Shown here: piece by piece, positions 2,956 to 22,461 of the stretch
Position numbering within the stretch: position 1 is the first letter of the stretch
How the letters are laid out: the number at the start of each line of letters is the position of its first letter
Assembly (NCBI RefSeq): GCF_042429435.1
Contig: NZ_JBHMAF010000196.1
Source: Ectobacillus funiculus
Lineage (GTDB): Bacteria > Bacillota > Bacilli > Bacillales > Bacillaceae_G
DNA: 24,000 nucleotides
Strand: one strand, 5' to 3'
The notes under the pieces: generated by a model
Told to the model about the DNA's origin: nothing
The model's database searches: none
Seen by the model: the letters and a program-made list of their open reading frames with translations, nothing else
Made by a program: the position numbers and the translations under genes

Positions 2956-3080
2956 ACTTTAAGCATAAATTTCTAGCCAGGGGACTATTCGACGTAGTGA
3001 GATATTCTAGGAATAAAATATAAGTGCAACTACGCCTCTGTTTTCACCCAAGGGCAAGGCTCGCCTATGATCTTGCTAAT
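2956..3080 (+). repeat. structured intergenic repeat, copy 1 (3' module degenerate)
   Basis: ACTTTAAGCATAAATTTCTAGCC...AAGTGCAACTACGCCTCTGTTTTCACCCAAGGGCAAGGCTCGCC aligns with copies at 11255, 12344 and 19594. The terminal hairpin and TTTTCTTTAC tail are lost. Confidence 0.7.
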
Positions 3081-3500
3081 TATTTCAAGCTTAGCGCATA
3101 GGACTTTCTATTCCTTATATAATATTTTGATATTAAATTAACAGGAAATAAAGTGTGCCAATCAAGGTATGGTTAATGTGTGTTCTCTGCTTCCTTTTGG
3201 GAATTCTTGTCCCTATTGTTTTTTGTTATTACCAGATTACTAGATCTTTTTAGAGGGGTTATCTGTGGCTGAAAAAAAGAGCTATATTGGCCTGCATGGT
3301 TATTATTCAGTCGAGGAGGAGTGTACGAAGGAACCAGTTAAGAGCTTTTGGATAATCGTTTCAGAGTCTAGAAATGCGAGTCATACTGTATAACACCGAA
3401 ATGTTTTCTGCCGCTTCGTCAAAAGAGTCCCTATAAGCGGACTGTGTTCGCGATGGTTGCTTTCTCCCTAGTTCTTTATCCGCTAGGAGAGAGGGCAACT

Positions 3501-3528
3501 AAAAAAGAGACGCTATTTCCAGCGTCTC
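3501..3528 (-). terminator. intrinsic terminator of the zinc-ribbon gene
   Basis: On the minus strand GAGACGCT-GGAAAT-AGCGTCTC is followed by TTTTTT (plus-strand A run 3501-3506). It lies 18 nt past the stop at 3546. Confidence 0.7.
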
Positions 3529-3545
3529 CATCTATTTATTAAAAA

Positions 3546-3767
3546 TCAGCGTAAAAGCAATCCATCAAGAAATTCAGTCTGTAAGGATGCTTCCCCGCAA
3601 TCTTTACAGGTCGTTATTGTAGCGCGGGCGTTGAATACACGGAGCATCTCGAAATCACTAGGATGCCAGCTGCTACACTCATGTTGAGTATTCTTTTCGC
3701 AACTAGGGCAATGTTTCTCCAAAAGCTTAACAGCGGGACTACGTTCAATTATTTTCTCCATTTTCAT
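3546..3767 (-). CDS. hypothetical small zinc-ribbon protein (CxxC...CxxC)
   Basis: 73-aa ORF with SD AAGGGGGA upstream of the ATG and its own terminator. It has two CxxC pairs (CPSC at residues 20-23, CKDC at 54-57). I recognise no family. Confidence 0.6.
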   Translation of the reverse strand: MKMEKIIERSPAVKLLEKHCPSCEKNTQHECSSWHPSDFEMLRVFNARATITTCKDCGEASLQTEFLDGLLLR

Positions 3768-4009
3768 ATTCCCCCTTTGTTTTGTAGCTCTACATTTAGA
3801 TTGTACCTTATTTTAGGACATATGTGATATGTTTTTAGTAAGATTTAGTGACATAAAAAAGAAACTTCATATGTAATTGTCCACTGCTCTTTCATCTGCC
3901 ATAAACATTCTATTATTTATCTTGGGCTGTTTCGTCTTAGGCTGTTCTTATCCAGCTGCCATTTATTCACATGTAATAAGAATATTTAGAAAATTTATAA
4001 TCTTTAGTA

Positions 4010-4038
4010 TTTACAAAATTCGACTTAAGATGTATGAT
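4010..4038 (+). promoter_or_regulatory. candidate sigma-A promoter reading into the tandem 76-nt repeats
   Basis: TTTACA (4010-4015), a 17-nt spacer, then TATGAT (4033-4038). No protein-coding ORF follows. Confidence 0.4.
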
Positions 4039-4044
4039 AAAGAC

Positions 4045-4526
4045 AAGTAATACAAACGAATCAAAAACATCAGAAAAGGATGTGAGTTTAGTAAAATAGA
4101 GAAAGGTGAAATGTACAGGGATGTACATGGGAATGGCTAACCTAACTAAGGAAAAGGTGATTCCAGTGGGATAGAGAAAGGCGAAGTGTGCAGAGGCGCA
4201 CATGGGAAGCAGCCAAGCTAACTAAGGAAAAGGTGATTCCAGTGGGATAGAGAAAGGCGAAGTGTACAGGGATGTACATGGGAAACGGCTAACCTAACTA
4301 AGGAAAAGGTGATTCCAATGAAGTAAGTAAGGCGAAGGTTTAATTACATAGACCGGGTAGGAACCTAGACATGAGTTTTGAACAAATCTCGAGTCAAGGA
4401 GGGGTTCTCTTAAAGAGAAAAGCATGGAAAGGACTTCGAAAAAATGAATGAGGAAATAGTGTAAGCGACCTTGTCACTCCAGTATGGATAGACGAGGTCG
4501 CTTGCTGTCGTTTTATCTGCTTTTTT
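4045..4526 (+). ncRNA. hypothetical GGA-rich small RNA (ends and strand not established)
   Basis: It lies downstream of the 4010-4038 promoter. There are 17 GGA on the + strand between 4078 and 4488, against 4 on the - strand. Hairpins are repeated. A possible 3' end is the 9-bp stem AAGCGACCT/AGGTCGCTT (4463-4503) followed by a T-rich tract to 4526. Confidence 0.3.
4072..4337 (+). repeat. 3.5 tandem copies of a 76-bp purine-rich unit
   Basis: Units start at about 4072, 4148, 4224 and 4300 (period 76). The first 41 nt of units 2 and 3 are identical (AAGGAAAAGGTGATTCCAGTGGGATAGAGAAAGGCGAAGTG). Unit 4 is partial. Confidence 0.9.
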
Positions 4527-4669
4527 GATCCAGTCGCTGCAAGTTTTGTTAGGGGAAGTGCTGTTATTACAATAATTCTCAACTTCATCATCTTAAAAGA
4601 GAAAGCTTCTAAAAATACAATGATTGGCGGTGCTGTAATTACTCTCAGTGCAGTAATGCTTATTCTATA
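4452..4669 (+). pseudogene. C-terminal remnant of an EamA/DMT-family transporter
   Basis: The open frame 4452-4669 has no start context. It ends ...FIILKEKASKNTMIGGAVITLSAVMLIL*, the typical last TM helix of DMT permeases. The N-terminal ~250 aa are missing. Confidence 0.45.
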
Positions 4670-4823
4670 ATGAACGATTTAATTAAGGAGTTCGGACCGT
4701 AAACCTTAGATATCACTATATATTAAGAAGGTTTTTGGCTGTTTTTTTGCTTTTGCATTAAAAAGGGAGGCAATGTATTGTAATGAGCCACATGGTGTAT
4801 ACTAAGAAAAAAGGAAGAATCTA

Positions 4824-5291
4824 ATGATAGGATGTATTATCGCAATCATTGTATTTAATATCGTAGCTTTTAAGCTAAATAAAAGGCTAACAACAAATCA
4901 AGTTGTTCATATTTGGACATTTACAATTGCGTTCCAATGCATCTTTGATTTTATGCTAGAATTTAAATATTATGGTTATTGGTATTTTGACAAAGGGGCA
5001 GATTGGATAGGGATTCTTCCGCATACAGTATTGATTTCACCTGTTAACATGATGTTTTTGAATGGATATCCGTTTGAACATGGAATGAGGAAAAAGATTG
5101 TGTATATTGTTGTCTGGACACTAGGTGCTTTAGTGTATGAAACCATCACGTTACTTCCTGAACCGTGGGGATACTTTCATTATGGGTGGTGGAGATTGTG
5201 GCACGCAGCACTAGTGGATCCTGTACTTTTTTTTATGCTGCTTAAATATTACAAATGGATATGCAAATTAGAAAGGCAAGCTTGTCAGTGA
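4824..5291 (+). CDS. small polytopic membrane protein (resembles CBO0543-type family)
   Basis: 155-aa ORF with SD AAAGGAAG 7 nt upstream. It has 4-5 hydrophobic, Trp/Tyr-rich segments. The family call is tentative. Confidence 0.6.
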   Translation: MIGCIIAIIVFNIVAFKLNKRLTTNQVVHIWTFTIAFQCIFDFMLEFKYYGYWYFDKGADWIGILPHTVLISPVNMMFLNGYPFEHGMRKKIVYIVVWTLGALVYETITLLPEPWGYFHYGWWRLWHAALVDPVLFFMLLKYYKWICKLERQACQ

Positions 5292-5415
5292 AAAAGAATG
5301 ATTGGTATTCAGGGATTTAAATGGTAAATTTTGTTATATAAACGCATGTGTAGAAAGAAGATAGATAATATCTGAAAAATAGAAATATTAAAATAGTTGA
5401 AAAGATTTCTTGGAA

Positions 5416-5446
5416 TAATAAAAAAGAAGAGCTATTGGAAGCTCTT
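5416..5446 (-). terminator. lexA terminator (possibly bidirectional)
   Basis: AAGAGCT (5427-5433) pairs with AGCTCTT (5440-5446), directly after the lexA stop (5447-5449). On the minus strand it is followed by CTTTTTTATT. Confidence 0.65.
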
Positions 5447-6067
5447 TTAATGGATATTTCGATATACGCCAATGACTTTTCCGATAATGGAAACGTGTTG
5501 TAAAATAATCGGCTGCAGCGAAGAGTTTTCTGGCTGCAGGCGGAAGTGTTCCGCTTCTTTATAGAAACGTTTTACTGTTGCTTCGTTTTCCTCCGTCATT
5601 GCTACCACAATTTCTCCGTTATTGGCGGATGTTTGCTGGCGAACGACAACGAGGTCGCCATCGAGAATTCCTGCCTCAATCATGCTGTCGCCAGCGATCT
5701 TTAACATGAAAACAGAATCGTTTTCGGGAACTAAATTGGCCGGCAATGGGAAATGCTCGTCAATATTTTCAACAGCTGTAATGGGCGGACCTGCTGTTAC
5801 TTTTCCGATAATCGGAACGTGTACAACGGATTTCATTACGGTGGATGGTCCATCCTCCCCTAATATTTCGATGGCGCGAGGCTTTGTTGGGTCGCGTCGA
5901 ATATACCCTTTTTCTTCTAAACGCGATAAGTGACCATGTACAGTAGAACTAGAAGCAAGACCAACCGCTTGCCCAATTTCACGTACAGAAGGCGGATACC
6001 CTTTTTCTTGTACCTTTTGCTTGATGAAGTTGAGTATATCAAGCTGTCTTTTTGATAGTTTTTCCAT
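5447..6067 (-). CDS. lexA: SOS repressor LexA
   Basis: The real start is [14 protein letters not shown] at 6067, after GAGGTG. The tracked 251-aa ORF is an upstream extension. It has a wHTH N-domain, a VTAG cleavage region, GDSM (Ser) and VKRF (Lys) of the S24 peptidase dyad. Confidence 0.97.
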
Positions 6068-6103
6068 ATTTACACCTCGCTTTGTATAAGAGCTTTTTAT
6101 TTC

Positions 6104-6129
6104 ATTATAGCATGAAAAGATTGTTTTCA

Positions 6130-6132
<3 letters not shown>
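6104..6132 (-). promoter_or_regulatory. lexA promoter
   Basis: On the minus strand: TTGTGA (6127-6132), 17 nt, then TATAAT (6104-6109). Confidence 0.5.
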
Positions 6133-6849
<717 letters not shown>

Positions 6850-6895
6850 CTAGTATAAGATGGGTACGTAGTGCTTAGAAAAGGAGAGAGGAACT

Positions 6896-7135
6896 ATGTT
6901 AAGTCCTGAAAAAATAAGTCGCATTAATGCGTTAGCTAATAAAGCAAAAGCGGAAGGATTAACGAAAGAAGAGCAGCAAGAACAGCAGGAACTTCGTAAA
7001 GAGTATTTGCAAACCTTCCGTGGGCATATGTTAGATCAATTAAAGTCTGTAAAAGTTGTTGATGATAAAGGAAATGATATTACTCCTGGGAAATTAAAGA
7101 AGCTCAAGCAGCAAGGGAAAAGCATGTTGCACTAA
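6896..7135 (+). CDS. ynzC: UPF0291/DUF896 protein YnzC
   Basis: 79 aa, with SD AAAGGAGAGAGG. It aligns with B. subtilis YnzC (RIN.LA.KAKA...EEQ.EQQ.LR.EYL..FR). Confidence 0.85.
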   Translation: MLSPEKISRINALANKAKAEGLTKEEQQEQQELRKEYLQTFRGHMLDQLKSVKVVDDKGNDITPGKLKKLKQQGKSMLH

Positions 7136-7164
7136 AAAGAGGCGAGGAAACTCGTCTCTTTTTG
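7136..7164 (+). terminator. ynzC terminator
   Basis: AGAGGCGAG-GAAA-CTCGTCTCT followed by TTTT. Confidence 0.7.
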
Positions 7165-7408
7165 CGTGAGAGATTGAGAGAACCAGGCTAAAAGGGTATT
7201 CAGTTGGTGCTTCTTGCAAGGATACTAGGCTTGAAATTACAAATAGACTGTATTTTTGGTGCTGTATGAATTTCTGTAATTTTTGTTATATTTGAAAAAT
7301 TATAATGTCTTTTCAATAAATATTGCCAATACATGTTGTATAATTAAGTGTGGCAAGCTATCATATAGAGTGTGTTAATTGTCTATTATTTTTGAAAGGG
7401 AGAAAACT

Positions 7409-9403: not shown

Positions 9404-9410
9404 TTTTTAG

Positions 9411-9445
9411 AAAAAAATCTCTCCGCTATGGGGAGATTTTTTTTT
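9411..9445 (+). terminator. tkt terminator
   Basis: ATCTCTCC (9417-9424) pairs with GGGGAGAT (9430-9437). A run of 9 T follows. Confidence 0.8.
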
Positions 9446-9730
9446 CGGTCTTTAGTAGTTGGTCAGGAAAAACAATCTTTGCGAAAATAGCATATAATAT
9501 TTTAAGGAAAGCAATTCGTTATTTATAAAACTGAAAGGAACACAAAAGGTTATTCCATAACGCAAAAGAAAAATGAATTTCTGATGACTTCGGCAAAGAA
9601 CTGCATGAAGATTTCTGGCATGAATACAACCGGTTGTTAAAAAATACCTCACATTAATGAAATCTGTATATTCTGATTAAGAAGGCTGGATTTTAAGAGG
9701 AAACTAATGTAGCCTATGAAAAACAGTTCT

Positions 9731-9737
9731 TTCGACA
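9731..9737 (-). promoter_or_regulatory. Spo0A box upstream of sirA
   Basis: Plus-strand TTCGACA is a perfect TGTCGAA (0A box TGNCGAA) on the minus strand. It lies about 55 nt upstream of a TATAAT at 9791-9796 and about 100 nt upstream of the sirA ATG. sirA is Spo0A-activated in B. subtilis. Confidence 0.4.
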
Positions 9738-10587: not shown

Positions 10588-10594
10588 AGCGGAC

Positions 10595-11036: not shown

Positions 11037-11136
11037 ATCTTATCATTCCTCTCGTAAAAAGAATATTTTCTAGTATTCTCCATTTTTGAGCCTATTCCTT
11101 CTTACTATAAAGAAAGACTTAAGTATATCTGTTCCG

Positions 11137-11254
11137 CTGTAAAAAGTATAAATTTCCAGCTAGGAGCGAATTCGACATAGAAGGGATTTTTAGGAAACTT
11201 CGCCTCTGTCTTCGCCCAAGGGGCAGGGCTCGCGAATCGGTGAGTTTTCTTTAC
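11137..11254 (+). repeat. structured intergenic repeat, copy 2 (5' end diverged, internal ~20-nt deletion)
   Basis: CTGTAAAAAGTATAAATTTCCAGCTAGGAGCGAATTCGAC...CGCCTCTGTCTTCGCCCAAGGGGCAGGGCTCGCGAATCGGTGAGTTTTCTTTAC. Confidence 0.85.
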
Positions 11255-11389
11255 ACTGTAAGAAAGAATAAATTTCTAGCTAGGAGCCAATTCGACGTAG
11301 TCGGAAATTTTAGGAATACAGTAAAAGTGCAACTACACCTCTGTCTTCGCCCGGGGAGCAGGGCTCGCCAATCGGTGAGTTTTCTTTAT
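11255..11389 (+). repeat. structured intergenic repeat, copy 3 (full length, head-to-tail with copy 2)
   Basis: ACTGTAAGAAAGAATAAATTTCTAGCTAGG...GGAAATTTTAGGAATACAGTAAAAGTGCAACTACACCTCTGTCTTCGCCCGGGGAGCAGGGCTCGCCAATCGGTGAGTTTTCTTTAT. Confidence 0.9.
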
Positions 11390-11516: not shown

Positions 11517-12224
11517 ATGCAGGATATAAATGTATTGTTGGCGTTTGGTGCGGGATTTTTGTCCTTTATATCTCCGTGCTGTTTACCGTTGTATCCGGCC
11601 TTTTTATCCTATATAACGGGAATGTCTGTATCGGAGCTGAAAGAGGAGCAAGGGATGCTGCAAAAGCGGGGGATGCTGCATACAGCATGTTTTCTTCTCG
11701 GATTTTCTATTATTTTCATTGCCATTGGCTTCGGAACTTCGTTGGTTGGAAAGTTCTTTATGGATTATCAAAACTTAATTCGACAGCTAGGTGCTATTTT
11801 TATCGTTTTGTTTGGACTTGTTATTGTTGGTGTATTCAAGCCAGAATTTTTGATGCGGGATCGGAAGTTCATCTTTCAAAATCGGCCATCCGGCTATTTT
11901 GGTTCTGTAGTGATTGGAATTGCATTTGCGGCAGGATGGACGCCTTGTACAGGTCCGATTTTAGTATCGGTGATAGCATTATCAGCTACGAATCCAGAGT
12001 CAGCGCTGCTGTATATGATAGCCTATGTCCTAGGATTTGCAATACCATTTTTCGTTTTGTCGTTCTTTATTACGAGAATGACATGGATTAAAAAGTATAG
12101 TGCAAGACTTGTTAAGATGGGCGGCTATGTAATGGTGCTTATGGGTGTGCTGTTATATTTTGATGCTATGACAGGAATTACTATATTTTTTGTCGATGTA
12201 TTCGGTGGCTTTAAAGGTTTTTAA
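11517..12224 (+). CDS. ccdA: cytochrome c biogenesis thiol-disulfide transporter CcdA
   Basis: 235 aa, aligning with B. subtilis CcdA ([29 protein letters not shown] ... AAGWTPC.GPIL). The out-of-frame ORF 11474..12091 is rejected. Confidence 0.93.
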
Positions 12225-12225
12225 C

Positions 12226-12343
12226 ACTGTAAGAAAATATAGATTTCCGGCTAGAAGTAGATTCGACTCAATCGGAAATTTTAGAAATGCAGTGTAAGTG
12301 CAAATTACGCTCATGTCTTCGCCAATTGGCGAGTTTTCTTTAC
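12226..12343 (+). repeat. structured intergenic repeat, copy 4 (short 3' variant)
   Basis: It starts 1 nt after the ccdA stop: ACTGTAAGAAAATATAGATTTCCGGCTAGAAG...GGAAATTTTAGAAATGCAGTGTAAGTGCAAATTACGCTCATGTCTTCGCCAATTGGCGAGTTTTCTTTAC. Confidence 0.9.
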
Positions 12344-12477
12344 ACTGTAGGAGAGTATAAACTTCCAGCTAGAAGTAGATTCGATGCAGTCGGAAGTTTT
12401 AGGAATACAGTGTAAGTGCAACTACGCCTCTGTTTTCGCCCAAGGGCAGGGCTCGCCAATCGGCGAGTTTTCTTTAC
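12344..12477 (+). repeat. structured intergenic repeat, copy 5 (full length, head-to-tail with copy 4)
   Basis: ACTGTAGGAGAGTATAAACTTCCAGCTAGAAG...GGAAGTTTTAGGAATACAGTGTAAGTGCAACTACGCCTCTGTTTTCGCCCAAGGGCAGGGCTCGCCAATCGGCGAGTTTTCTTTAC. Confidence 0.9.
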
Positions 12478-12487
12478 AGGGCTATGG

Positions 12488-12496
12488 TGCTATAAT
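12488..12496 (+). promoter_or_regulatory. extended -10 promoter candidate for ccdC
   Basis: TGCTATAAT (TGnTATAAT) lies 11 nt after the end of repeat copy 5 and about 40 nt upstream of the ccdC ATG. The -35 position falls in the repeat tail (TTTTCT, a poor match). Confidence 0.45.
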
Positions 12497-12538
12497 AGCT
12501 AGAATAGGATTAAATTTCCGGAAAAAGGATGATGAGGG

Positions 12539-13045
12539 ATGAATTCAATACTTCTATCGAGCATTGTGGCTGTTTTAATGGGAATGGGTGTGATGTTCGT
12601 TCGGTTTAAAGCGGCAAAAAAGCCTGCATCCTTAAAAAAGATTATTTTACCCCCTATTTTCATGAGTACAGGGGCATTGATGTATGTTGTTCCTGAGTTT
12701 CGAATTACGCCTGCAGAAATGGCAGAATCTATAGCGGTTGGCTTATTTTTCTCTATTTTTCTTATTAAAACCTCCAAGTTTGAAGTGCGCGGGAACGAGA
12801 TTTATTTGCAGCGTTCTAAGGCGTTTGCAGGTATTTTGCTCGGCTTGCTCATTGTGCGGATTGCATTTAAAACATATTTAAGTCAAACAATTGATTTTGG
12901 ACAGCTAAGCGGTATGTTTTTCCTTCTTGCCTTCTCTATGATTATATCATGGCGGGTTGCGATGTATCGTTCGTACAAAACGATAGAGGCAGAGCTGAAA
13001 AAGACGAACCCTTTGCAATTTGATGAAGATAGAAAGCTCACGTAA
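12539..13045 (+). CDS. ccdC: CcdC (YneJ) membrane protein
   Basis: 168 aa, aligning with B. subtilis YneJ (SSIVAVLMG...KKIILPPIFMSTG ... FEVRGNEIYLQRS). It follows ccdA. Confidence 0.85.
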   Translation: MNSILLSSIVAVLMGMGVMFVRFKAAKKPASLKKIILPPIFMSTGALMYVVPEFRITPAEMAESIAVGLFFSIFLIKTSKFEVRGNEIYLQRSKAFAGILLGLLIVRIAFKTYLSQTIDFGQLSGMFFLLAFSMIISWRVAMYRSYKTIEAELKKTNPLQFDEDRKLT

Positions 13046-13075
13046 AAAACCTCAGTCGGATAACTGAGGTTTTTT
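13044..13075. terminator. bidirectional terminator between the convergent genes ccdC and yneK
   Basis: AAAAAACCTCAG-TCGGATAA-CTGAGGTTTTTT. It has an A run on one side and a T run on the other. Confidence 0.8.
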
Positions 13076-13506
13076 CATTTAAACAGCAATGCTTGAAAGG
13101 GAGAATAATCAATTTGCTTTTTCTTAAGTGTTTGTACTAAAAACTTATGGTCGCGTTTTGGAGTAGCAAGAATATAGCCTTTAATAATGAGGTCTTGTGT
13201 AATGCTTACAGCCTTTTCCTGCAAAGCGAGCTCTCCGATTTTTCCGGCGATTTTCGAGCGTGCTACATCACGGAACAACTCTGGAACGGGACTGACGAGT
13301 TCCTCTAGCAATGTTTTTTGCTCCTCTCCCCACATATGCCGAGTTTGTTCAATATAGTAGTATTCCCAGTCTAAAATGGATTTGCCGTCTTCCTTTGGCA
13401 GCCGTTTCAAAAACTTTCGAAACATAAAATATCCGCCGATTGACATAAGACTTAATAAAATAACTGTCCAAATGACGATGAACCAGCTGAACCACCCTGT
13501 AAGCAA
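13075..13506 (-). CDS. yneK: DUF2621-type membrane-anchored protein YneK
   Basis: 143 aa with a TTG start at 13506, 6 nt after AAGGGGGA. It has an N-terminal TM helix. Position and sequence type match B. subtilis yneK. Confidence 0.8.
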   Translation of the reverse strand: MLTGWFSWFIVIWTVILLSLMSIGGYFMFRKFLKRLPKEDGKSILDWEYYYIEQTRHMWGEEQKTLLEELVSPVPELFRDVARSKIAGKIGELALQEKAVSITQDLIIKGYILATPKRDHKFLVQTLKKKQIDYSPFQALLFK

Positions 13507-13601
13507 TGCACATCCCCCTTTGTATGACTAAAAAATTTTCATAGATTGCTAACTTTATTATAAAGTTGGCACCTGTATAAAGGCAAGACGGGGGGCTGTT
13601 G

Positions 13602-13630
13602 TTAACAAGTCTTGTCTTAATTGGTATACA
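13602..13630 (+). promoter_or_regulatory. candidate hut operon promoter
   Basis: TTAACA (13602-13607), a 17-nt spacer ending in TGG (TGn extended -10), then TATACA (13625-13630). The spacer contains the palindrome ACAAG-T-CTTGT. Confidence 0.4.
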
Positions 13631-13671
13631 GGATGTATATGCCGCATATGCAAAGAAAAAGGGGTGGTATT

Positions 13672-14109
13672 ATGCTGCAAGAAAGCAATCGAATCGGCCG
13701 CATTGCTATGCTTTTTGCACTGGCAGATGCAGGAGAAACGTTAACTACTCCGCTTCCAAATGGATGGCGGTATTGCACGGGCAAGGTCGGGTCTATGAAT
13801 TCGCAAAAAATTGTTGCTGCTATGGAAACTGCCGCTAAAAGTTCGCATATTATAGAAACAGATGTATATCGAGAAACACATGCGTTGTATCATGCGATTA
13901 TGGAAGCGCTATACGGAGTAACAAGAGGGCAAGTACAGTTAGGAGATGTGCTCCGTACCGTTGGGCTTCGATTTGCGATTGTGCGAGGCAATCCGTACGA
14001 TCGCAAACAAGAAGGAGATTGGCTTGCTGTTGCACTTTACGGCACAATTGGTGCACCGGTTCGAGGTTCTGAGCATGAGGCAATCGGACTTGGGATTAAT
14101 CATATATAA
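13672..14109 (+). CDS. hutP: hut operon positive regulator / RNA-binding antiterminator HutP
   Basis: The real start is [14 protein letters not shown] at 13672, after AAGGGGTGG. It aligns with B. subtilis HutP (GW..C.GKVGSM......AA.ETA.K ... [14 protein letters not shown]....[23 protein letters not shown]). Confidence 0.93.
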
Positions 14110-14187
14110 TAGCCCATAGTTTATGAGAATAGAAGGGGGCCTTGTCATGCGGGGTGGTGTAATCCTGCATGACAAGGCCCCTTTTTG
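14110..14187 (+). promoter_or_regulatory. HutP-responsive attenuator (UAG motifs plus intrinsic terminator) between hutP and hutH
   Basis: UAG occurs at 14110, 14117 and 14130. The first two are 4 nt apart, as in HutP sites. A 15-bp perfect stem GGGGCCTTGTCATGC (14136-14150) / GCATGACAAGGCCCC (14167-14181) follows, and then TTTTTG. Confidence 0.75.
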
Positions 14188-14207
14188 CCTAAAAGAGGTG
14201 AGCGAGG

Positions 14208-15701
14208 ATGATTGTATTAACAGGGGAGTCTCTTACGATGGAACAGATGCGCTGCATTTTGTATAAGGGGGAAGCTGCTGCAGCCTGCCCGCAAAGTATG
14301 GAGCGCGTTCGGAGATGCCGCAAAGTGGTTGAAGAGATCGTTGCTGATGAGAAGATTGTGTATGGGATTACGACTGGATTTGGCAAGTTTAGCGATGTAT
14401 TGATTGGAAAGGAGGATACACAGCGGTTGCAGCAATATTTAATTCAATCACATGCGTGCGGAGTGGGAGAGCCGTTTCCCGAAGAAGTGGCGCGCACTAT
14501 GCTTGTGCTGCGCGCCAATACATTATTAAAAGGATACTCGGGGGTGCGGCCTGACGTTATTTTGCTGCTGCTTGAGCTCGTCAACCGCCGTATTCATCCT
14601 GTTATTCCGCAGCAAGGTTCTCTTGGCGCAAGTGGAGATTTGGCGCCCCTTTCTCATCTTGCGCTCGTGTTAATTGGCGAGGGAGAGGTGTTTTATAAAG
14701 GAAAGCGGCAGCGTACAGCGAAGGTGCTTGCCAAAGAAGGGCTGCAGCCAATTGTTTTACAGGCAAAGGAAGGACTTGCGCTCATTAATGGTACACAGGC
14801 GATGACAGCGATGGGAGTCGTTACGTATCTAGAAGGCGAAGTGCTAGCCTATCAGTCAGAATATATTGCGGCTATGACGCTGGAAGGCTTAAGGGGAATC
14901 ATAGATGCGTTTGATGAGAGCATACACTTAGCTAGGGGCTACCCTGAGCAGACTCGTGTAGCGCAGCGAATGCGGCTGATCTTGACGGGTAGCAAGCTCG
15001 TTACAAATCAAGGAGACCTGCGTGTACAGGATGCGTACTCCCTTCGTTGCATTCCACAGGTGCATGGTGCGACGTGGCAGGTGCTTGGTTATGTAAAAGA
15101 AAAGCTGGAGATTGAAATGAATGCGGCAACTGACAATCCGCTTTTGTTTGCGGACGGTGATAAAGTGCTTTCCGGCGGTAATTTTCATGGGCAGCCGATT
15201 GCGTTTGCTCTAGATTTTTTAAGCATTGCGATGGCGGAGCTTGCTAATATTTCCGAACGGCGTATTGAACGTCTTGTGAATCCGCAGCTGAATGATTTAC
15301 CGCCGTTTCTGAGTCCGCAGCCTGGACTGCAATCTGGAGTGATGATTTTGCAATATGTTGCAGCTTCCCTCGTGTCAGAAAATAAAACGCTCGCCCATCC
15401 GGCAAGCGTTGACTCAATCCCCTCCTCCGCGAATCAAGAAGATCATGTGAGCATGGGGACAATCGGTGCTCGTCACGCCTATCAAATCACAATGAATGTC
15501 CGGCGTGTATTAGCCATCGAACTAATCTGCGCTATGCAGGCTGTGCAGTATCGGGGAGTGGAACATATGAGTGCGAAGACGAGGGGGCTATATAAAGAAG
15601 GCCGAAAGATTGTCCCGCCTATTGTCAAGGATCGCATATTTTCTTATGACATAGAGAATGTGGCGAAGTGGCTACAAGCAGAAAAGAGGGAGATCGTATG
15701 A
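14208..15701 (+). CDS. hutH: histidine ammonia-lyase
   Basis: 497 aa with SD AAAGAGGTGA. It has the MIO-forming motif [15 protein letters not shown] and strong full-length resemblance to B. subtilis HutH. Confidence 0.97.
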
Positions 15702-17350
15702 TGAAACATATTCGGGCACCGCGCGGAACAACATTGCAGACGAAGGGATGGGTGCAGGAGGCTGCCTTGCGTATGCTGCTGAATAATCTAGACCCAGAGG
15801 TTGCTGAAAGACCAGAGGAGCTAGTTGTATACGGCGGAATCGGAAAAGCGGTTCGCAATTGGGAGAGCTTTCACGCGATTGTTGAATCGTTGAAGCAACT
15901 GGAAGAAGATGAGACGCTGCTTGTTCAATCTGGAAAACCGGTTGCTATATTCCGTTCCCATGCAGATGCGCCTCGTGTATTGCTTGCAAATTCCAATCTC
16001 GTTCCCAAATGGGCGACGTGGGAGCATTTTCGTGACCTAGAGAAACAAGGTCTCATGATGTACGGACAGATGACGGCAGGAAGCTGGATTTATATCGGAA
16101 CACAAGGTATTTTACAAGGAACGTATGAAACATTTGCAGAGGCAGCGCGGCAGCATTTTCAAGGAACGCTCAAGGGGACGATTACAGTAACATCAGGGCT
16201 TGGGGGAATGGGAGGAGCACAGCCGCTTGCAGTGACAATGAATGGCGGGGTTGTAATCGCTATTGAAGTTGATCCACAGCGCATTAAGCGGCGGATTCAA
16301 ACGAAATATTGTGACAGGATGACAGCTTCTTTAGATGAAGCGATTGCTCTTGCAAGGAAATATAAGGAAAAACAGGAGCCGTTGTCGATTGCGCTATTAG
16401 GAAATGCGGCAGATGTACTCCCTGAACTTGTGAAGAGGGGATTTACCCCTGATTTGGTGACTGATCAAACATCGGCTCATGATCCGCTGCATGGCTATTT
16501 GCCAGCAGGTATGTCGTTAGAGAAGGGAGAATCACTGCGAAGCGAGCAAGCAGCGGCTTATATCTCACTTGCGAAAAAAAGCATGGCGCATCATGTAGGG
16601 GCGATGCTCGAGCTGCAAAAGCGGGGGGCGGTTGTATTTGACTACGGCAATAATATTCGACAGATAGCATATGATGAGGGGGTGGAGCATGCATTTGATT
16701 TTCCAGGCTTTGTGCCGGCATTCATTCGGCCGCTATTTTGTGAAGGAAAGGGACCGTTTCGTTGGGTTGCTTTATCGGGAGATCCTGCGGACATTTATAA
16801 AACAGATGAAGTAATTTTACGCGAGTTTTCTGACAACCATCGTTTATGCAGCTGGATTAGGGAAGCTCGTCAAAAGGTTGCGTTTCAAGGCTTACCAGCT
16901 CGTATTTGCTGGCTAGGCTACGGAGAACGGGCAAGGTTTGGTCAAATCATCAATGAAATGGTTGCAAAGGGAGAGCTATCTGCTCCAATCGTGATTGGTC
17001 GCGATCATCTAGATTGCGGTTCTGTTGCTTCGCCGAATCGAGAAACAGAAGGGATGAAGGATGGAAGTGACGCTGTGGCAGATTGGCCCATTTTAAATGC
17101 AATGATTAATAGTGTAAATGGTGCGAGCTGGGTATCTGTTCATCATGGCGGAGGAGTGGGAATGGGGTATTCCTTACATGCGGGGATGGTGATTGTGGCC
17201 GATGGCACGGAGGCTGCCGCTAAACGTCTGGAAAGAGTATTAACATCTGATCCTGGTATGGGAATCGTGCGGCATGTGGATGCAGGATATGATCTGGCTA
17301 AGCAAACAGCAAAGAGACATGGGATAAACATTCCGATGATGGGGGAATAA
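15698..17350 (+). CDS. hutU: urocanate hydratase
   Basis: The real start is [10 protein letters not shown] at 15698, after GAGGGAG. This forms an ATGA overlap with the hutH stop. Motifs [10 protein letters not shown] and [18 protein letters not shown] are present. Confidence 0.97.
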
Positions 17351-17351
17351 C

Positions 17352-18614
17352 ATGCTGGATACATTGCTTATCAATATTGGGCAGCTGCTCACGATGAATC
17401 ATGGAGAGAAGCCGTTAAAAGGGGAAGCAATGGGGAGGCTTCCCCGTATCGAGAACGGTGCAGTAGGGATAAAAGATGGAAGATTTGCTTTTGTTGGATC
17501 GATGGAAGAGGCGAAGCAGCTTAAAGCGGAGAAGGTAGTAGATTGCATGGGCAGGATTGTTTCGCCAGGTCTGATAGATCCTCATACACATGTTGTATTT
17601 GGCGGCTCTCGGGAGCATGAAATCTCGTTAAAGCTGCAGGGCGTACCATACCTAGAGATTTTAAAGCGGGGCGGCGGCATCTACTCCACTGTACAAGCGA
17701 CAAAGCAGCTGAGTGTGGAGGAGCTGAAAAGGAAAGCGAAGGGACATCTTGATCGGATGCTGTCCTATGGTGTTACAACAGCGGAAGCAAAAAGTGGTTA
17801 CGGCTTAGATAGAAAAACGGAGTGGAAGCAGCTGCAGGTGATACAAATGCTTCAGCAGGAGCACCCTATAGATCTTGTCCCAACCTTTTTAGGTGCACAT
17901 GCACTTCCGAAAGAATATGAGGGAAATGCGGCGGCTTTTTTGCAATCGATGATTCAGATATTGCCGGAGCTAAAAGGAATGGCTGAATTTGTTGACATTT
18001 TTTGTGAAACGGGTGTGTTTACGGTAGAGGAAGCAAGGGCTTATTTGCAAAAGGCTAAACAGTTTGGCTTCCATGTAAAGATGCACGCGGACGAAATTCA
18101 TTCGATTGGCGGGACAGAGGCAGCTGTAGAGCTTGGGGCAGCCTCGGCTGATCATTTGTGCGGTGCTTCCGAGAAAGGTATCGAAATGCTTGCCGCTTCT
18201 GATACGATTGCGGTCCTTTTACCCGGCACCACATTTTATTTAAATAAGGATCGTTATGCCAAGGCGCGCAGCCTAATTACAGCAGGTGCAGCTGTTGCAC
18301 TTGCCACAGACTTTAACCCAGGCAGCTGCCCGACAGAAAATATACAGCTGATTATGAGCCTTGCGCTCCTGAAGCTGAAGATGACACCAGAGGAAATTTG
18401 GAATGCTGTAACGGTAAATGCGGCACATGCAATTCACCGCGGAAGCTCGGCAGGACAAATTCAAGTCGGACGATTTGCTGATGCTGTTCTTTGGGATGCG
18501 CATCATTATGCGTACATTCCGTATCATTTTGGCGTGAATCATGCTGGAACCGTTTGGAAACATGGAAAAGTCGTATATCAGCGAGGTGAGGAAGCTTGCG
18601 CATTCCATACGTAA
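17352..18614 (+). CDS. hutI: imidazolonepropionase
   Basis: It starts 1 nt after the hutU stop. Amidohydrolase motifs are present ([25 protein letters not shown]). Confidence 0.96.
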
Positions 18615-19537
18615 AAAAGCATGCCGCATTTTCTGATCGTGAAGTAACAAGATGGAATGACATTCTCAAGGATTGGGATGGAGCAGAAGCGCTCATAGGC
18701 CCTGTTATTCTTGGAGTCCCATTATCGAAGTCATCCATCAGTCATTCTGGCGCGTCCTTTGCTCCGCATGCGATTCGACGCATGCTAGGATTATATACAA
18801 CGTATCACATAGAGGATGAAAAGGATGCTGCAGACAGCGTACTATTAGATTGCGGGGATATAGAGATGCATGTTACAAACATACTGGAGAACCATAAACG
18901 AATAGAGCATGCCGTTTCTTTATTAACAGAACGGTATGAAAAAGCGATACCGATTATCCTTGGAGGCGACCATTCTATTAGCTTTCCTAGCATTAGCGGA
19001 TTTGCAAAGGGAAGAGGGAGGGTTGGCGTTATTCAATTTGATGCGCATCATGATTTACGAAATATAGAGGACGGCGGACCATCCAATGGTACACCGTTTC
19101 GGAATCTGCTTGAACATGGCGTGGTAGAAGGGGAGAATATAATCCAAATTGGCATCCGCAATTTTTCAAATGCCAAGGCATATCATGCATATGCTCTTGC
19201 AAAAGGAGTAACCGTTTACACAATGAAGCAGGTAAGGAACCGAGCGGTAACAGACATTGTACAGGAGAGTATTGAAAAGCTGCGTACCCGTGTAGACAGC
19301 ATATACGTTTCTATTGATATGGATGTACTGGATCAAGCTTGTGCGCCTGGGTGTCCTGCCATCGGTCCTGGGGGGCTGCATAGCCGGGAGCTGCTTGAGG
19401 CAGCGGCATTGCTTGGAAAAGAACCTCTTGTCGGAGCTGTAGATATTGTAGAGATTGATCCAACGATTGATTTTCGAGATATGACGAGCAGAATTGCTGC
19501 ACATATCGTCATGAGTTTTGTTTTGGAGCGATTATAG
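18596..19537 (+). CDS. hutG: formimidoylglutamase (arginase family)
   Basis: TTG start after GGTGAGG, overlapping the hutI end by 19 nt. Motifs [17 protein letters not shown] and SIDMDVLD are present. Confidence 0.93.
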
Positions 19538-19540
19538 CTG

Positions 19541-19586
19541 AAAACACCCCTGCTTAGGAGCACAGCTCATAAGCGGGGGTGTTTTT
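19541..19586 (+). terminator. hut operon terminator
   Basis: AAAACACCCCTGCTTA (19541-19556) pairs imperfectly with TAAGCGGGGGTGTTTT (19570-19585). The T run is included. Confidence 0.8.
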
Positions 19587-19593
19587 AAATTAC

Positions 19594-19721
19594 ACTTTAA
19601 GAAAGTATAAATTTCTAGCTAGATGCCAATTCGACGTAGCGAGAAATTTTAGGAATAAAGTATAAGTAGGGCTACGCCTCTGTCTTCGCCTAACGGCTCG
19701 CCAATCGGCGAGTTTTCTTTA
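19594..19721 (+). repeat. structured intergenic repeat, copy 6
   Basis: It follows ATTAC: ACTTTAAGAAAGTATAAATTTCTAGCTAGATGCCAATTCGACGTAGCGAGAAATTTTAGGAATAAAGTATAAGTAGGGCTACGCCTCTGTCTTCGCCTAACGGCTCGCCAATCGGCGAGTTTTCTTTAG. Confidence 0.9.
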
Positions 19722-19773
19722 GAAATAGATATATTTTTGTATGCTTTCTCGCATTACAAGCATTTCATCATGT

Positions 19774-20583
19774 TCAACCTCTTCGGAATAGTCCGAGTAC
19801 TTCCACGGTTTCGGTAATATTTACAAACGCATGCGGATCTGCTTCAGCAATTAATGCTTTAATATTTACAAGCTCCTCTTTTGCAATAACCGTCATGAGT
19901 ACGCGCTTTTTTTCGCTCGAATAAGCTCCTTCACCTTCTAGAAGCGTAATGCCGCGCACAATGCTAGAAAGCAGGCTTTGCTTCATTTCCTCTGCTTTGT
20001 TCGTTATGATCATAAGCGTAAGCTTTTTATGCTTCGTGTGGATGGCATCAATGACTTTTCCTGTTACATAGATAGAAAGCAGACTGTTTAAGGCAGAGTC
20101 CCAATTAAAGAAAAAACCAGAAATAAGAATTACTACTGCATTTAATACAATCAAAAATCCGCCAAGTTGTATCTCCTTCTTCCTGGAGAAGAGCATGCCT
20201 ACAATGTCAAAGCCTCCGGTCGAGCCTGCACAATTAAGTACAAGTCCGACCCCTGCACCAGTGAGGACACCGCCGAACAGAGAGGAAAGAAGAGACTCTG
20301 TTGCAATGGCCTGCACAGGGATGAAATACAAACCCGCTGAAATCACAAGAACAGATAAAACAGTGTAGCAAATAAACCGCTTGCCAAGACCTATGTAGCC
20401 TGCAATTAAAATAGGTATGTTCAGTAATAGGTTGATGAGTCCCGTGTTAAGCGGTGTCAAAATACCGATAATAATTGCGATACCGCTAATACCGCTGCTA
20501 AGGACATGATGCGGGATGAGAAAACAGTTAAAAGAAAAAGAGATGAGTACCGAGCCGAGAATAATCCCTAATAACTTGTACAT
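19774..20583 (-). CDS. YitT-family membrane protein (with C-terminal DUF2179-type domain)
   Basis: 269 aa with SD AAAGGACGG. It has five to six TM segments followed by a soluble C-terminal domain (TLMIITNKAEEM...VNITETVEVLG), typical of YitT. Confidence 0.85.
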   Translation of the reverse strand: MYKLLGIILGSVLISFSFNCFLIPHHVLSSGISGIAIIIGILTPLNTGLINLLLNIPILIAGYIGLGKRFICYTVLSVLVISAGLYFIPVQAIATESLLSSLFGGVLTGAGVGLVLNCAGSTGGFDIVGMLFSRKKEIQLGGFLIVLNAVVILISGFFFNWDSALNSLLSIYVTGKVIDAIHTKHKKLTLMIITNKAEEMKQSLLSSIVRGITLLEGEGAYSSEKKRVLMTVIAKEELVNIKALIAEADPHAFVNITETVEVLGLFRRG

Positions 20584-20853
20584 ACAATGAGACCGTCCTT
20601 TTTATCAATCTTATTGTGAATTATAAAGGTATTTGGCTCATTTGTGGAAAAACAGTTTATTTTGGAAAGTATAACTAGTTTGAAAAGTATAAAAATTTAA
20701 ATTTTAGCATGAATATTCATTTTTAAAGGAGATGTTGTTTTTACTTGCGGAAGGGAAGGCAAGTCAGCTATATAAGTGTTTGGATTGCATACTTATGAGA
20801 GCGGAAGAATGACACAAGCATAGAGGGCGCTCAACCAATGAGCGTCCTTTGTA

Positions 20854-21015
20854 CTAGAATAAGCCGACAATTGCTTCATATAATCGATACCCGAGATAGA
20901 TGCCGACAATTCCTAATACTCCTACTAAGGTAGGTGGAGCTGGAAGAGGAAGTTTGATAGCCGAAAATACTACACCAACGATGAGACCGGCAAGAATCGC
21001 TAAAGCGTATTGCAT
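20854..21015 (-). CDS. XapX-domain small membrane protein
   Basis: The real start is MQYALAILAGLIVG at 21015, after AAGGGGTG. The 53-aa protein has the XapX-like pattern LPLPAPPTLVGVLGIVGIYLGY. Confidence 0.65.
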   Translation of the reverse strand: MQYALAILAGLIVGVVFSAIKLPLPAPPTLVGVLGIVGIYLGYRLYEAIVGLF

Positions 21016-21118
21016 ATGACACCCCTTCTCGTAATACAAGATAAAGGTAGTATACGTCACCTTTCCAATCCTTATTTAACCTAACTTCACAAAGGAGAGC
21101 TTTTCCGGATGAAGGAGG

Positions 21119-21520
21119 CTATTTGCACCCTTCATCCGGAAAATGAATCGTATGCTCCTTTACCGAAACCATTTCATTTTTTGAAATATGGATTTCTAGT
21201 AAACCGTTTTCAAAAGAAGCATTCATACGTTTGTACATGATATTCACAGGCAGCTGTATATCACGCATGAGTGCAGGACCTGTTTTTGTTTGGATGAGAA
21301 TACGCAGTCCATTCTCTGTCTTTTCGATCATAATATCGCTTTGACAAGCATTGGGCGGGACATCGGCTTCCAAAATATACTCTTGTTCCGTTTCAAATAA
21401 ATCAATGCGAAGCCCTTCTGGATAATAAAAGCTAGCGTAAGGATCTGCGAAAAATTGGTCCATCCACTGTTCAAATCCTTCGACTTGAAAAAAGCAGTCC
21501 TTTTTTTTCTTTGCACACAT
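21119..21520 (-). CDS. cotM: spore coat protein CotM-like (alpha-crystallin/Hsp20 fold)
   Basis: The real start is MCAKKKKD at 21520, after GGAGGG. The segment WMDQFFADP....LRIDLFETEQEYILEADVP matches the CotM/ACD pattern. It is adjacent to sspP as in B. subtilis. Confidence 0.7.
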   Translation of the reverse strand: MCAKKKKDCFFQVEGFEQWMDQFFADPYASFYYPEGLRIDLFETEQEYILEADVPPNACQSDIMIEKTENGLRILIQTKTGPALMRDIQLPVNIMYKRMNASFENGLLEIHISKNEMVSVKEHTIHFPDEGCK

Positions 21521-21732
21521 GGCGCGAAACCCTCCGTTATTCTGATTCTTGATACATAATATACAGCGGGAGGATAGATAGGTGATATAAAGCGCAGAAT
21601 TGTATATCAATATCACATTATGTGGCCGAATGAGGGAATATGTAAACAAAGAAAAAAGGATTGTATTTGAATAATTGAACAATTGATGGAGAAATATGGA
21701 GACGAGACGTTAGACTTGTTTTTCGAGTTAGA

Positions 21733-21757
21733 AAGCCCGCTGAAGGCGGGCTTCATG
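21733..21757 (-). terminator. sspP terminator (weak U-tract)
   Basis: AAGCCCGC (21733-21740) pairs with GCGGGCTT (21746-21753). On the minus strand it is followed by TCTAAC, which gives the run CTTTCT. Confidence 0.55.
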
Positions 21758-21761
21758 TAAC

Positions 21762-21911
21762 TTATTGATCGTGATGGGTGTTATGTTTTTGACGTGTATG
21801 GTTACGGTTTTTTACTTTATGAGAGCCGCTCATTGGTTCCGGTTGACCGCTCGATGGTTGTGCGTCCTTCGGTGAGTTGCGACGAATGGATTTTGCGCTG
21901 TTTCGTTCCAT
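21762..21911 (-). CDS. sspP: small acid-soluble spore protein P
   Basis: It is not in the ORF track because it is under 60 aa. My translation is [49 protein letters not shown]. It matches B. subtilis SspP (...[23 protein letters not shown]...). SD is GGAAGGAGGG. Confidence 0.85.
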
Positions 21912-21932
21912 GAAATATCCCTCCTTCCCTAT

Positions 21933-21961
21933 TAGGATGAGAGAATTTTGTGTAAATATAC
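21933..21961 (-). promoter_or_regulatory. sigma-G/F-type forespore promoter candidate for sspP
   Basis: On the minus strand: GTATA (21957-21961), 17 nt, then CATCCTA (21933-21939). This compares with the consensus GHATR - 17/18 - CATXHTA. Confidence 0.4.
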
Positions 21962-22027
21962 CTGTATGTTTTAGCGGGAAGCTACGAAATATATAGAGGA
22001 AAAGAGTGACAAGAAAGGGGATTTTTT

Positions 22028-22297
22028 ATGCCGTACAATAAAGATGAGCAGCAGGCGTTTCAAGCAGCGCAGCAAGGAACAAAGGAAGCAGTAAATATCG
22101 CAAGCAGCATCGTGGCAAATGACCCGGATTATGCAAGCCAGCTAAAGCATCTTCGCAAAGAGGTGGGCGAGGCATATGAGCAAATTCAAAATGCGTTAGA
22201 AAGCGCAACAGAAACGCAGTATGATCAATTGCAAAAATATGAACAGGATTTGCGCAAGATTATGCAAGATGTAGATGGACAGGATAGCTTTAGCTGA
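22028..22297 (+). CDS. hypothetical 89-aa Gln/Glu-rich helical protein
   Basis: It has SD AAAGGGGA and its own strong terminator. It sits on the opposite strand between sspP and sspO. No family is recognised. Confidence 0.6.
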   Translation: MPYNKDEQQAFQAAQQGTKEAVNIASSIVANDPDYASQLKHLRKEVGEAYEQIQNALESATETQYDQLQKYEQDLRKIMQDVDGQDSFS

Positions 22298-22300
22298 GGA

Positions 22301-22330
22301 AAAACCCGCCTATATTGGCGGGTTTTATGT
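22301..22330. terminator. bidirectional terminator
   Basis: AAAACCCGCC-TATATT-GGCGGGTTTT, with A and T runs on both sides. Confidence 0.8.
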
Positions 22331-22334
22331 TTAC

Positions 22335-22461
22335 ACTGTAGGAAGATATAAAGTTCCGGCTAGAAGTCCTTAACATAGCCGGAAATTTTAGGAATACAGT
22401 GTGAGTACAACTGCGCCTCTGTCTTCGCCTAACGGCTCATTAATTGGCGAGTTTTCTTTAC
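22335..22461 (+). repeat. structured intergenic repeat, copy 7
   Basis: It follows GTTTAC: ACTGTAGGAAGATATAAAGTTCCGGCTAGAAGTCCTTAACATAGCCGGAAATTTTAGGAATACAGTGTGAGTACAACTGCGCCTCTGTCTTCGCCTAACGGCTCATTAATTGGCGAGTTTTCTTTAC. The last 4 nt overlap the sspO stop codon. Confidence 0.9.

Follow-up and report, generated by a model that had tools for sequence, protein, structure and literature searches.

Seven copies of a structured, non-coding repeat (unit size 90–136 nt) lie in a 24,000-nt stretch of Ectobacillus funiculus DNA (hereafter the window), and we judge, at a probability of about 0.55, that they are copies of a non-autonomous, modular mobile element that is part of a wider superfamily found in soil Bacillaceae and depends for its movement on an enzyme supplied in trans, the gene for which lies outside the window. 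Its usual place is directly after an intrinsic terminator; bare T-runs precede it less often. An earlier note on the window had described a dense, MITE-like (miniature inverted-repeat transposable element) family confined to intergenic DNA, with no transposase in the window, and recently active in the way of bcr1 of the Bacillus cereus group. Its picture of a dense, co-oriented, structured, non-coding family stands, and all copies are indeed intergenic. To it we add that copies are placed precisely behind the T-runs of terminators, that the family extends across genera with its 3′ module almost unchanged, and that it forms a modular superfamily.

The copies were delimited by direct-repeat search, sequence reading and alignment. 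An nhmmer profile made from six of them recovered all seven (E-values 5e-21 to 9e-41), each on the + strand and where the earlier note had placed it, and a strict pattern for the 3′ module matched the window five times and 100 shuffles not once. A 27-base pattern scanned against 185,579 species genomes returned at least 92 stretches; in the window plus 92 loci, drawn from at least 20 genomes, the profile made 193 matches. Genera among the matches listed were Ectobacillus, Neobacillus (12 named species or strains), Cytobacillus (4) and Scopulibacillus, together with Bacillus benzoevorans and several metagenome-assembled genomes (MAGs). One Ectobacillus MAG (JBEPZN01) carries at least 115 copies in 34 blocks, with tandem arrays of up to four units. 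By the Rfam check that the note had proposed, the family is not a catalogued one: Rfam 15 in gathering mode gave 0 matches over the whole window, and E-value mode, run on the copies, on Neobacillus and Cytobacillus variants and on a second repeat family, gave chance-level matches only, save for a sub-threshold match to Bacillaceae-1. Literature searches found no description of this family, which is apparently undescribed.

Insertion site, polarity and turnover

Target statistics were drawn from 99 arrays with an intact 5′ end and from 84 controls. A run of at least four T residues lay directly upstream of 82 of the 99 arrays, as against 9 of the 84 controls, and the upstream 40 nt folded with a median energy of -11.9 kcal/mol compared with -2.75 kcal/mol in controls (p = 9e-14). 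The six positions ahead of the junction were 74–89% T; the base after the T-run was A in 57% of arrays, and the element then starts with (C/T)AC. Intact copies each end in a terminator-like hairpin plus U-tract, and because this end (a GC hairpin followed by TTTTCTTTA) is itself such a target, head-to-tail and mixed arrays are expected. Many copies read ..TTTTAT|AC.. at the left and ..TTTCTTTAT at the right; the base that follows TTTA changes on one side without regard to the other, the right-hand TTTA is part of the element, and the length of the T-run at the junction is variable. Models invoking a TA or 5-nt duplication, or a dyad-symmetric attB, were set aside, as the flanks do not fit them.

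Polarity is fixed within arrays, which are strictly head-to-tail, and is biased between them. Taking GC skew as a proxy for replication direction, 124 of 148 arrays were co-oriented with the local skew (52 of 61 in the other genera), and 103 of 132 (78%) with the upstream gene; where skew and upstream gene conflict, the element follows the skew in 21 cases and the gene in 8. Within MAG contigs, one polarity accounted for 65 of 74 arrays versus 74% of genes. These figures are suggestive of a replication-linked bias, the T-run being carried by the lagging-strand template.

Related genomes differ in the presence of copies. Locus L025 of the Ectobacillus MAG is syntenic with window positions 11607-19338 at ~92% identity and has one copy at the position of the window pair c4–c5. 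It is filled at two further sites, A and B (Table 1), neither of which holds a copy in the window or in any E. funiculus strain examined. Comparison of the filled and empty states defines the junctions at both sites to within 0–1 nt, with no duplication longer than 1 nt. Copy number is also polymorphic between strains. L094, from a strain 98–99% identical, has copies at the same sites as the window, its c6 counterpart measuring 118 nt; L098 has single copies upstream of ccdA and at the ccdA–ccdC site in place of the two pairs of the window; and at the ccdA–ccdC site a single copy is likewise present in L099 and L100. In none of L098, L099, L100 and L025 is c4 present as a separate unit. The aligned single copies (both sites of L098 and the ccdA–ccdC site of L100) are chimeras that join the 5′ part of unit one to the 3′ part of unit two, the mark of unequal recombination within arrays.

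The 80 aligned MAG copies had a mean identity of 85% and a nearest-neighbour identity of 93%, and none were identical. The adjacent copy was the closest relative in only 9 of 34 tandem copies, suggesting that many array neighbours arrived independently and that the family is not young. Orthologous copies diverge by 2.8%, compared with 2.0% for other intergenic DNA and 1.25% for coding sequence, and c1, which has lost its terminator, persists in both strains. This neutral drift of resident copies, together with termini that are near-identical between genera, characterizes a mobile family and not a set of individually selected RNA genes.

Anatomy, modules and spread

Each full unit has the three parts that the earlier note had correctly recognized. 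A long imperfect 5′ hairpin, with outer stem ACACTGTA/TACAGTGT, inner stem AAATTTCC/GGAAATTT and loop ATTCGAC, is followed by a linker and then by the 3′ hairpin CTCGCC-AATC-GGCGAG and TTTTCTTTA; both of the long stems named in that note fall inside the 5′ two-thirds of the element. Length variants are roughly as it described, but c6 and c7 do not simply lack GCCCAAGGGCAGGGC: a short GCC-TAAC-GGC hairpin replaces it, and c4 is without the whole hairpin region. The segment missing from c2 comprises ~16 nt around TACAGT..GTGCA, at the junction of hairpin and linker.

Among 92 aligned copies, the specified structure was paired in 90% of cells, compared with 28–50% when the 3′ partner was slid, and twelve of its pairs showed two-sided changes. 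Pair 7-73 is UA in 44 copies and GC in 33, pair 26-57 is UA in 47 and CG in 32, and pairs 24-59, 25-58, 22-61 and 3-77 also covary; within the window, the inner-stem change AAACTTCC/GGAAGTTT of c5 is compensatory. Because its stems covary, the 5′ hairpin has been selected as a hairpin; the 3′ module shows no covariation because its sequence is too conserved. A pseudoknot pairing, AAGAAAG/CTGTCTT, could form in 94% of cells, without two-sided covariation. The junction between tandem units, CTTTCTTTA-N5-TAAGAAAG, is an inverted repeat, and the minimum free energy fold of c6, and in part that of c5, pairs the A-rich 5′ motif with the 3′ U-run. No conserved internal promoter was found in the element. 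A reading of inner-stem wobble counts as a sign of + strand folding was withdrawn, the full count being contradictory between stems, and the short matches that the 5′ loop TTCGACGTAG makes to a Spo0A box, to the nick site of pMV158 and to the ssoA CS-6 motif were judged to be at chance level.

Conservation across genera is concentrated at the 3′ end. The last ~60 nt are almost invariant between genera, consisting of ATAAGTGCAACTACGCCTCTGTCTTCGCC, a small hairpin of variable length (GCC..GGC) and then TCGCCAATCGGCGAGTTTTCTTTA, and the 3′ module ATAAGTGCAACTACGCCTCTGTCTTCGCC-(variable small hairpin)-GGCTCGCCAATCGGCGAGTTTTCTTTA is near-identical in Ectobacillus, Neobacillus, Cytobacillus, Scopulibacillus and MAGs. 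The 5′ part is the long imperfect hairpin with a conserved ATTCGACGTAG loop in Ectobacillus, Cytobacillus and some MAGs, and a short hairpin, TAGGAAAG-TATAA-CTTTCCTA or a 17-bp version, in Neobacillus and Scopulibacillus. Some copies contain additional hairpin modules, inserted at a GTGCA^AAC junction. One of these, an optional internal module present in other genera and not in the window copies, scored 19.7 bits against the 35-bit threshold of Bacillaceae-1 (RF01690) and has two hairpins with loops CGUCCUG and CAUCCUG. Relative to the 3′ module it is antisense in Neobacillus and Cytobacillus and sense in Scopulibacillus, and since it occurs in either orientation it may itself act as a nested insertion module.

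The second repeat family, of ~155 nt and without copies in the window, has an unrelated interior (GTCTAGCTCC...GCGCTTTTCTT) and has in common with the first family only the 5′ motif TAAGAAAGTATAA and an end formed by a hairpin and TTTTCTT(T)A; the two families alternate in mixed arrays. Termini held in common around unrelated interiors point to cis-acting sites. Solo 5′ hairpin modules lacking the 3′ module were also found (Table 1), one of which is an almost perfect 75-nt palindrome (ACACTTTAAAAAACATAAATCTCT...AGAAATTTATACTTTTTTAAAGTGT) directly behind a terminator T-run; host genes, not a longer element, follow them. Given these solo modules, the 5′ module may be able to exist or move alone.

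Outside these genomes, blastn of c5 against the plasmids of PLSDB made one match, at 74.5% identity and unannotated (CP053689.1, 35878-36009), and no copy was found in a phage collection or in viral contigs. The plasmid match lies in a 250-kb record labelled Arthrobacter citreus NEB 577 (Actinomycetota), an organism label that may be wrong.

Copies in the window and their surroundings

Table 1 Coordinates of the repeat copies, empty sites and related modules. Copies c1–c7 and sites A and B are numbered along the window; other rows give positions within the named locus.
Feature	Position	Strand	Description
c1	2954-3067	+	Degenerate; 5′ hairpin and linker retained, 3′ terminator-like hairpin destroyed; nhmmer E 5e-21, model positions 2-113
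c2	11134-11253	+	120 nt; first of a tandem pair, 5′ of ccdA
c3	11254-11388	+	Full length, 135 nt; head-to-tail with c2; 3′ hairpin scored terminator-like
c4	12224-12342	+	119 nt; small middle hairpin missing
c5	12343-12476	+	Full length; head-to-tail with c4
c6	19592-19721	+	Short middle hairpin GCC-TAAC-GGC; directly behind the hutG terminator
c7	22333-22460	+	Directly behind the terminator (22301-22327) of an 89-aa open reading frame
Empty site A	13541^13542	+	aaaaaattttca^tagattgc; L025 has one copy (1809-1930) exactly here, no duplication
Empty site B	13619^13620	+	gtcttgtctta^attggtata; L025 has two tandem copies (2014-2278), junction ambiguous by one A
Bacillaceae-1-like module	L067 4468-4526; L037, L091, L074 (Cytobacillus); L019, L052, L036 (Scopulibacillus)		Optional internal module
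Second family	L031 5100-5256; L043 5962-6114, 3690-3860; L022 6368-6522; L092 ~1300-1470		CAAGATAAGAAAGTATAAC...GTCTAGCTCCCAAGGCCC...GCGGGCCTTGTCCGCTTTTCTTTA
Second family, further loci	L021 2326-2650; L014 ~4480-4655		A Cytobacillus/Neobacillus variant exists
Solo 5′ hairpin module	L022 1666-1740	-	Without 3′ module; the 75-nt palindrome
Solo 5′ hairpin module	L026 1100-1172		Without 3′ module
Solo 5′ hairpin module	L027 ~2700-2826		Without 3′ module

Three of the window copies, c1, c6 and c7, start 2–8 nt past the T-run of the upstream gene's own terminator. The glnA terminator (hairpin ~2919-2944, T-run 2945-2951) directly precedes c1, and that of hutG (hairpin ~19541-19581, T-run 19582-19586) lies upstream of c6. 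The last three bases of c7, TTA (22458-22460), are the complement of the TAA stop codon of sspO, a convergent gene on the - strand that was identified through gene calls at the syntenic locus L094. The other four copies form two exact head-to-tail pairs. The first base of c4 (12224) is also the last base of the ccdA stop codon TAA (12222-12224), and extended -10 promoter-like sequences of ccdA (TGTGTATAAT) and ccdC (TGCTATAAT) follow immediately upon c3 and c5, respectively.

The window encodes glnR–glnA, lexA, a yneB-type resolvase homologue, tkt, sirA, ccdA, ccdC, a DUF2621 gene, hutPHUIG and yitT. Looked up by its exact sequence, its CcdC matched nothing, and homologues were compared instead: it is 99–100% identical to proteins that carry the names Ectobacillus funiculus or Bacillus sp. 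OTU530 and ~68–71% identical to those of the B. cereus group, three of whose ccdC loci contained no copies. As the earlier note had said, no transposase is present in the window; its sole recombinase-like open reading frame is the conserved YneB-type resolvase homologue that adjoins lexA.

Three further features of the window were recorded. About four tandem 76-nt units (4061-4363; 85% matches, no Rfam match) lie in a 1.7-kb stretch poor in open reading frames (3100-4824), between c1 and a 155-aa membrane-like open reading frame that has no Pfam match; L094 appears to be one such unit shorter (blast overlap of 242 versus 168 nt). The same stretch contains, on the - strand (3546-3767), a 73-aa open reading frame with CxxC...CxxC spacing, which is zinc-ribbon-like. 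Between hutP and hutH, a very strong 20-bp hairpin with a T-run (14135-14182) lies where the terminator of the hut operon that HutP controls would be expected, and so is ordinary.

Candidate mechanisms and known systems

If the copies are indeed a mobile element, integration would take place in a single fixed polarity immediately 3′ of a T-run, usually a T-run plus A, and such a T-run in intergenic DNA would nearly always be the U-tract side of an intrinsic terminator. Insertion would make no target duplication and, given the GC-rich hairpin plus TTTTCTTTA at the end of the element, would each time recreate the target and supply a terminator; the cost to the host would be low, because an inserted copy would still stop transcription ahead of the next promoter. 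Arrays would afterwards expand and contract through unequal homologous recombination. As to chemistry, we tentatively propose, at odds clearly short of even, that a structure-specific enzyme, of HUH/Y1 type or comparable, inserts a folded single strand at the replication fork; in this version, the conserved A-rich 5′ motif TAAGAAAG would pair with the T-run and so select the target. Site-specific recombination of the 'TTTAT' type, as proposed for bcr1–3, would be a close alternative. The bolder proposition is that the superfamily homes to terminators by means of a TAAGAAAG guide that pairs with the T-tract on the lagging-strand template, through a structure-specific enzyme of a kind so far unrecognized and with the terminator rebuilt at each insertion. 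We hold it to be unlikely as stated; if true, such guide-pairing would parallel group IIC intron homing at the level of DNA, and might be the mechanism still missing for bcr1–3.

Several observations weigh against a mobile element of this type. Neither the window nor 94 loci (~750 kb) yielded a transposase, an HUH protein or a longer element with matching ends, and a B. cereus IS200/IS605 element (L101) has ends without relation to those of the repeat. The repeat also has two dissimilar hairpins, whereas those at the ends of IS200/IS605 elements are alike. Single-copy folding energies are only modestly below those of shuffles (z -0.8 to -2.8) and are alike on both strands, and wobble pairs (174 G.T versus 131 A.C) show opposite trends in the two stems; neither energies nor wobble can tell which strand folds, or whether it folds as DNA or as RNA. 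Gene orientation confounds GC skew measured over 8 kb. The difference at sites A and B may reflect either insertion or precise loss. Strains ~98–99% identical show no insertions at new sites, their differences being recombinational, and no identical pair occurs among the 109 full copies examined. Current activity is therefore undemonstrated, and the 'recently active' of the earlier note is not supported for a family in which every full copy differs and strains differ by recombination inside arrays.

The copies might instead be functional RNA or terminator modules selected by the host (a backup terminator, a 3′ untranslated region (UTR) stabilizer or a small RNA) and spread mainly by local duplication and horizontal transfer. 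The terminator-like ends of intact copies would be expected of such a module, as would covarying stems, a linker and 3′ module conserved across genera in the manner of a structured RNA, and the co-orientation of 78% of arrays with the upstream gene; at ccdA, moreover, where the element begins at the stop codon, nothing else that resembles a terminator lies ahead of the ccdC promoter. Yet most copies stand behind a terminator that already existed, orthologous copies are conserved no better than the rest of the intergenic DNA, and c1 has survived the loss of its terminator in both strains. The module has neither a conserved internal promoter nor an Rfam family, and precisely bounded copies at unrelated loci would need a dispersal mechanism in any case. 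We consider host selection to be a poor prospect as the main explanation.

Somewhat lower still, we place a palindrome-associated transposable element (PATE) of the IS200/IS605 type, moved by a Y1 TnpA, for which the T-run would be the left cleavage and target site and the 3′ hairpin the right-end hairpin. The repeat resembles PATEs in being strand-specific, in having sub-terminal hairpins and no terminal inverted repeat, and in inserting without duplication and with fixed polarity 3′ of a short motif (here a T-run, with A in 57%). It also appears to have the replication-strand bias of PATEs, ~85% of arrays following the skew proxy (21:8 in cases of conflict) with the T-run strand on the lagging-strand template, and its A-rich motif stands beside the 5′ hairpin, where a guide sequence would be. 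PATE ends, however, have similar left and right hairpins, whereas the 75-nt 5′ hairpin, or TAGGAAAG-TATAA-CTTTCCTA, is unrelated in sequence and size to CTCGCC-AATC-GGCGAG, and the left end differs between genera where the right is constant; the end of the element also mimics its target, unlike that of IS608. A Y1 partner was looked for: tblastn with IS200 TnpA (a query that matches IS200F at 100%) found no Y1 gene in the ~750 kb of loci, the top 120 homologues of a Bacillus TnpA included none from Ectobacillus or Neobacillus, and Bacillus IS200/IS605 ends are unrelated to those of the repeat. The longer, same-ended element that the earlier note had suggested looking for was not found in the loci, nor did all-against-all blast of the loci reveal a longer common repeat.

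Spread without any enzyme is improbable, in our estimate. A segment bounded by T-runs would be copied through template switching or microhomology recombination at stalled hairpins, and arrays would grow by slippage. Such copying would fit junctions that are T-runs of variable length on both sides, mosaic nested modules (including the Bacillaceae-1-like module in either orientation), the clearly recombinational array changes between strains, and the lack of a transposase in the loci searched. It leaves unexplained why, among all DNA bounded by T-runs, only these families reached at least 100 copies, why the 5′ motif and 3′ module are conserved across genera, and why the base after the T-run and the first bases of the element are regular.

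Least probable is a classical MITE, a deletion derivative of an insertion sequence (IS) with a DDE transposase that moves by cut-and-paste through terminal inverted repeats and leaves a target-site duplication: the family is small, non-coding, abundant, intergenic and variably present between genomes, and has a short imperfect inverted repeat, but terminal inverted repeats of ~15–30 bp and a duplication, both of which were tested for, are lacking (end-to-end complementarity is limited to the 8-nt A-rich TAAGAAAG, set 5–6 nt inside the 5′ end, against the 3′ T-run CTTTCTTTA; filled and empty sites show no duplication longer than 1 nt, and the junction bases of single copies differ between left and right), strict polarity relative to T-run and skew is not expected of a DDE MITE, and no IS with matching ends was seen in the loci searched. 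The term 'MITE-like' thus does not apply in its strict sense.

Should terminator homing by a mobile element hold, selfish DNA would use a universal signal of transcription to locate safe sites, and the element would add terminators, array polymorphism and recombination substrates to Bacillaceae chromosomes. In practical terms, such repeats will break short-read assemblies and yield spurious open reading frame calls. Small interspersed repeats without a known transposase, bcr1–3, SPRITE and BOX among them, have been unresolved for about two decades. The present family offers a precise and statistically overwhelming target, termini common to families with unrelated interiors, a 3′ module that barely varies, and genomes with at least 100 copies beside close relatives with empty sites; together, these handles make the search for a mobilizing enzyme tractable.

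The repeat belongs to a known general kind, that of small interspersed non-autonomous repeats, of which its terminator-homing variant is distinctive. Group IIC introns, such as B.h.I1 of Bacillus halodurans, home behind a terminator stem-loop and T-run, in the orientation of the terminator, and pair briefly with the T-rich 5′ flank; they are ribozyme and reverse-transcriptase retroelements of at least 600 nt. The likeness is confined to target preference, since the repeat is too short for a six-domain ribozyme with a GUGYG 5′ end and domain V, has no group II domains, and made no Rfam intron match. REP/BIME repeats with RAYT are GC-rich palindromes of 20–40 bp with a GTAG/CGTC tag and alternating orientation within arrays. 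The repeat differs: its units of 90–136 nt are AT-rich outside the 3′ hairpin and strictly head-to-tail, and its GTAG belongs to the 5′ loop instead of standing at a palindrome foot. With BIME/REP arrays, as with BOX, it has in common a modular build and variable module numbers. BOX of Streptococcus pneumoniae consists of boxA-boxB(n)-boxC modules with optional inserts and lone modules, folded transcripts and slow mobility (PMC3049150), and differs in having terminal inverted repeats and a target duplication, whereas this family has neither and its polarity is fixed to T-runs.

SPRITE is a small interspersed, terminator-like repeat that is enriched near the 3′ ends of genes, with no matching IS and a mode of duplication that is unknown; it has a single 18-bp duplex and a long U-rich tract, and numbers ~30 copies, ~63% of them on the leading strand (PMC3049150). 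The present family is likewise an interspersed terminator-like repeat near gene 3′ ends, without a matching IS in the loci searched. SPRITE differs in that it has not been reported precisely behind existing terminators or in arrays, and there is no sequence relation between the two.

Nearest to the repeat in behaviour are bcr1–3; there are also likenesses to SPRITE in the terminator-like end, to BOX in modularity and to group IIC introns in target choice. These B. cereus-group repeats are non-coding, measure ~100–155 bp, occur in tens to more than 100 copies, often in UTRs, and have two independent stem-loops with compensatory changes, a strain-variable distribution, a TTTAT-type junction motif and no identified transposase (PMC3184786, PMC6542083, PMC3446304). 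Compensatory changes and a strain-variable distribution were likewise found in the present family, which agrees with bcr1–3 in size, in its two stem-loop modules and, tentatively, in TTTA(T/C) junctions, and Ectobacillus is close to the B. cereus group. The families were compared by description, and the search of PLSDB with c5 matched no B. cereus-group plasmid. They also differ: bcr1 is reported to be restricted to the B. cereus group and to be flanked by 5-bp direct repeats, whereas the present family spans several genera, shows no duplication, and is defined by its terminator context and terminator-like 3′ end.

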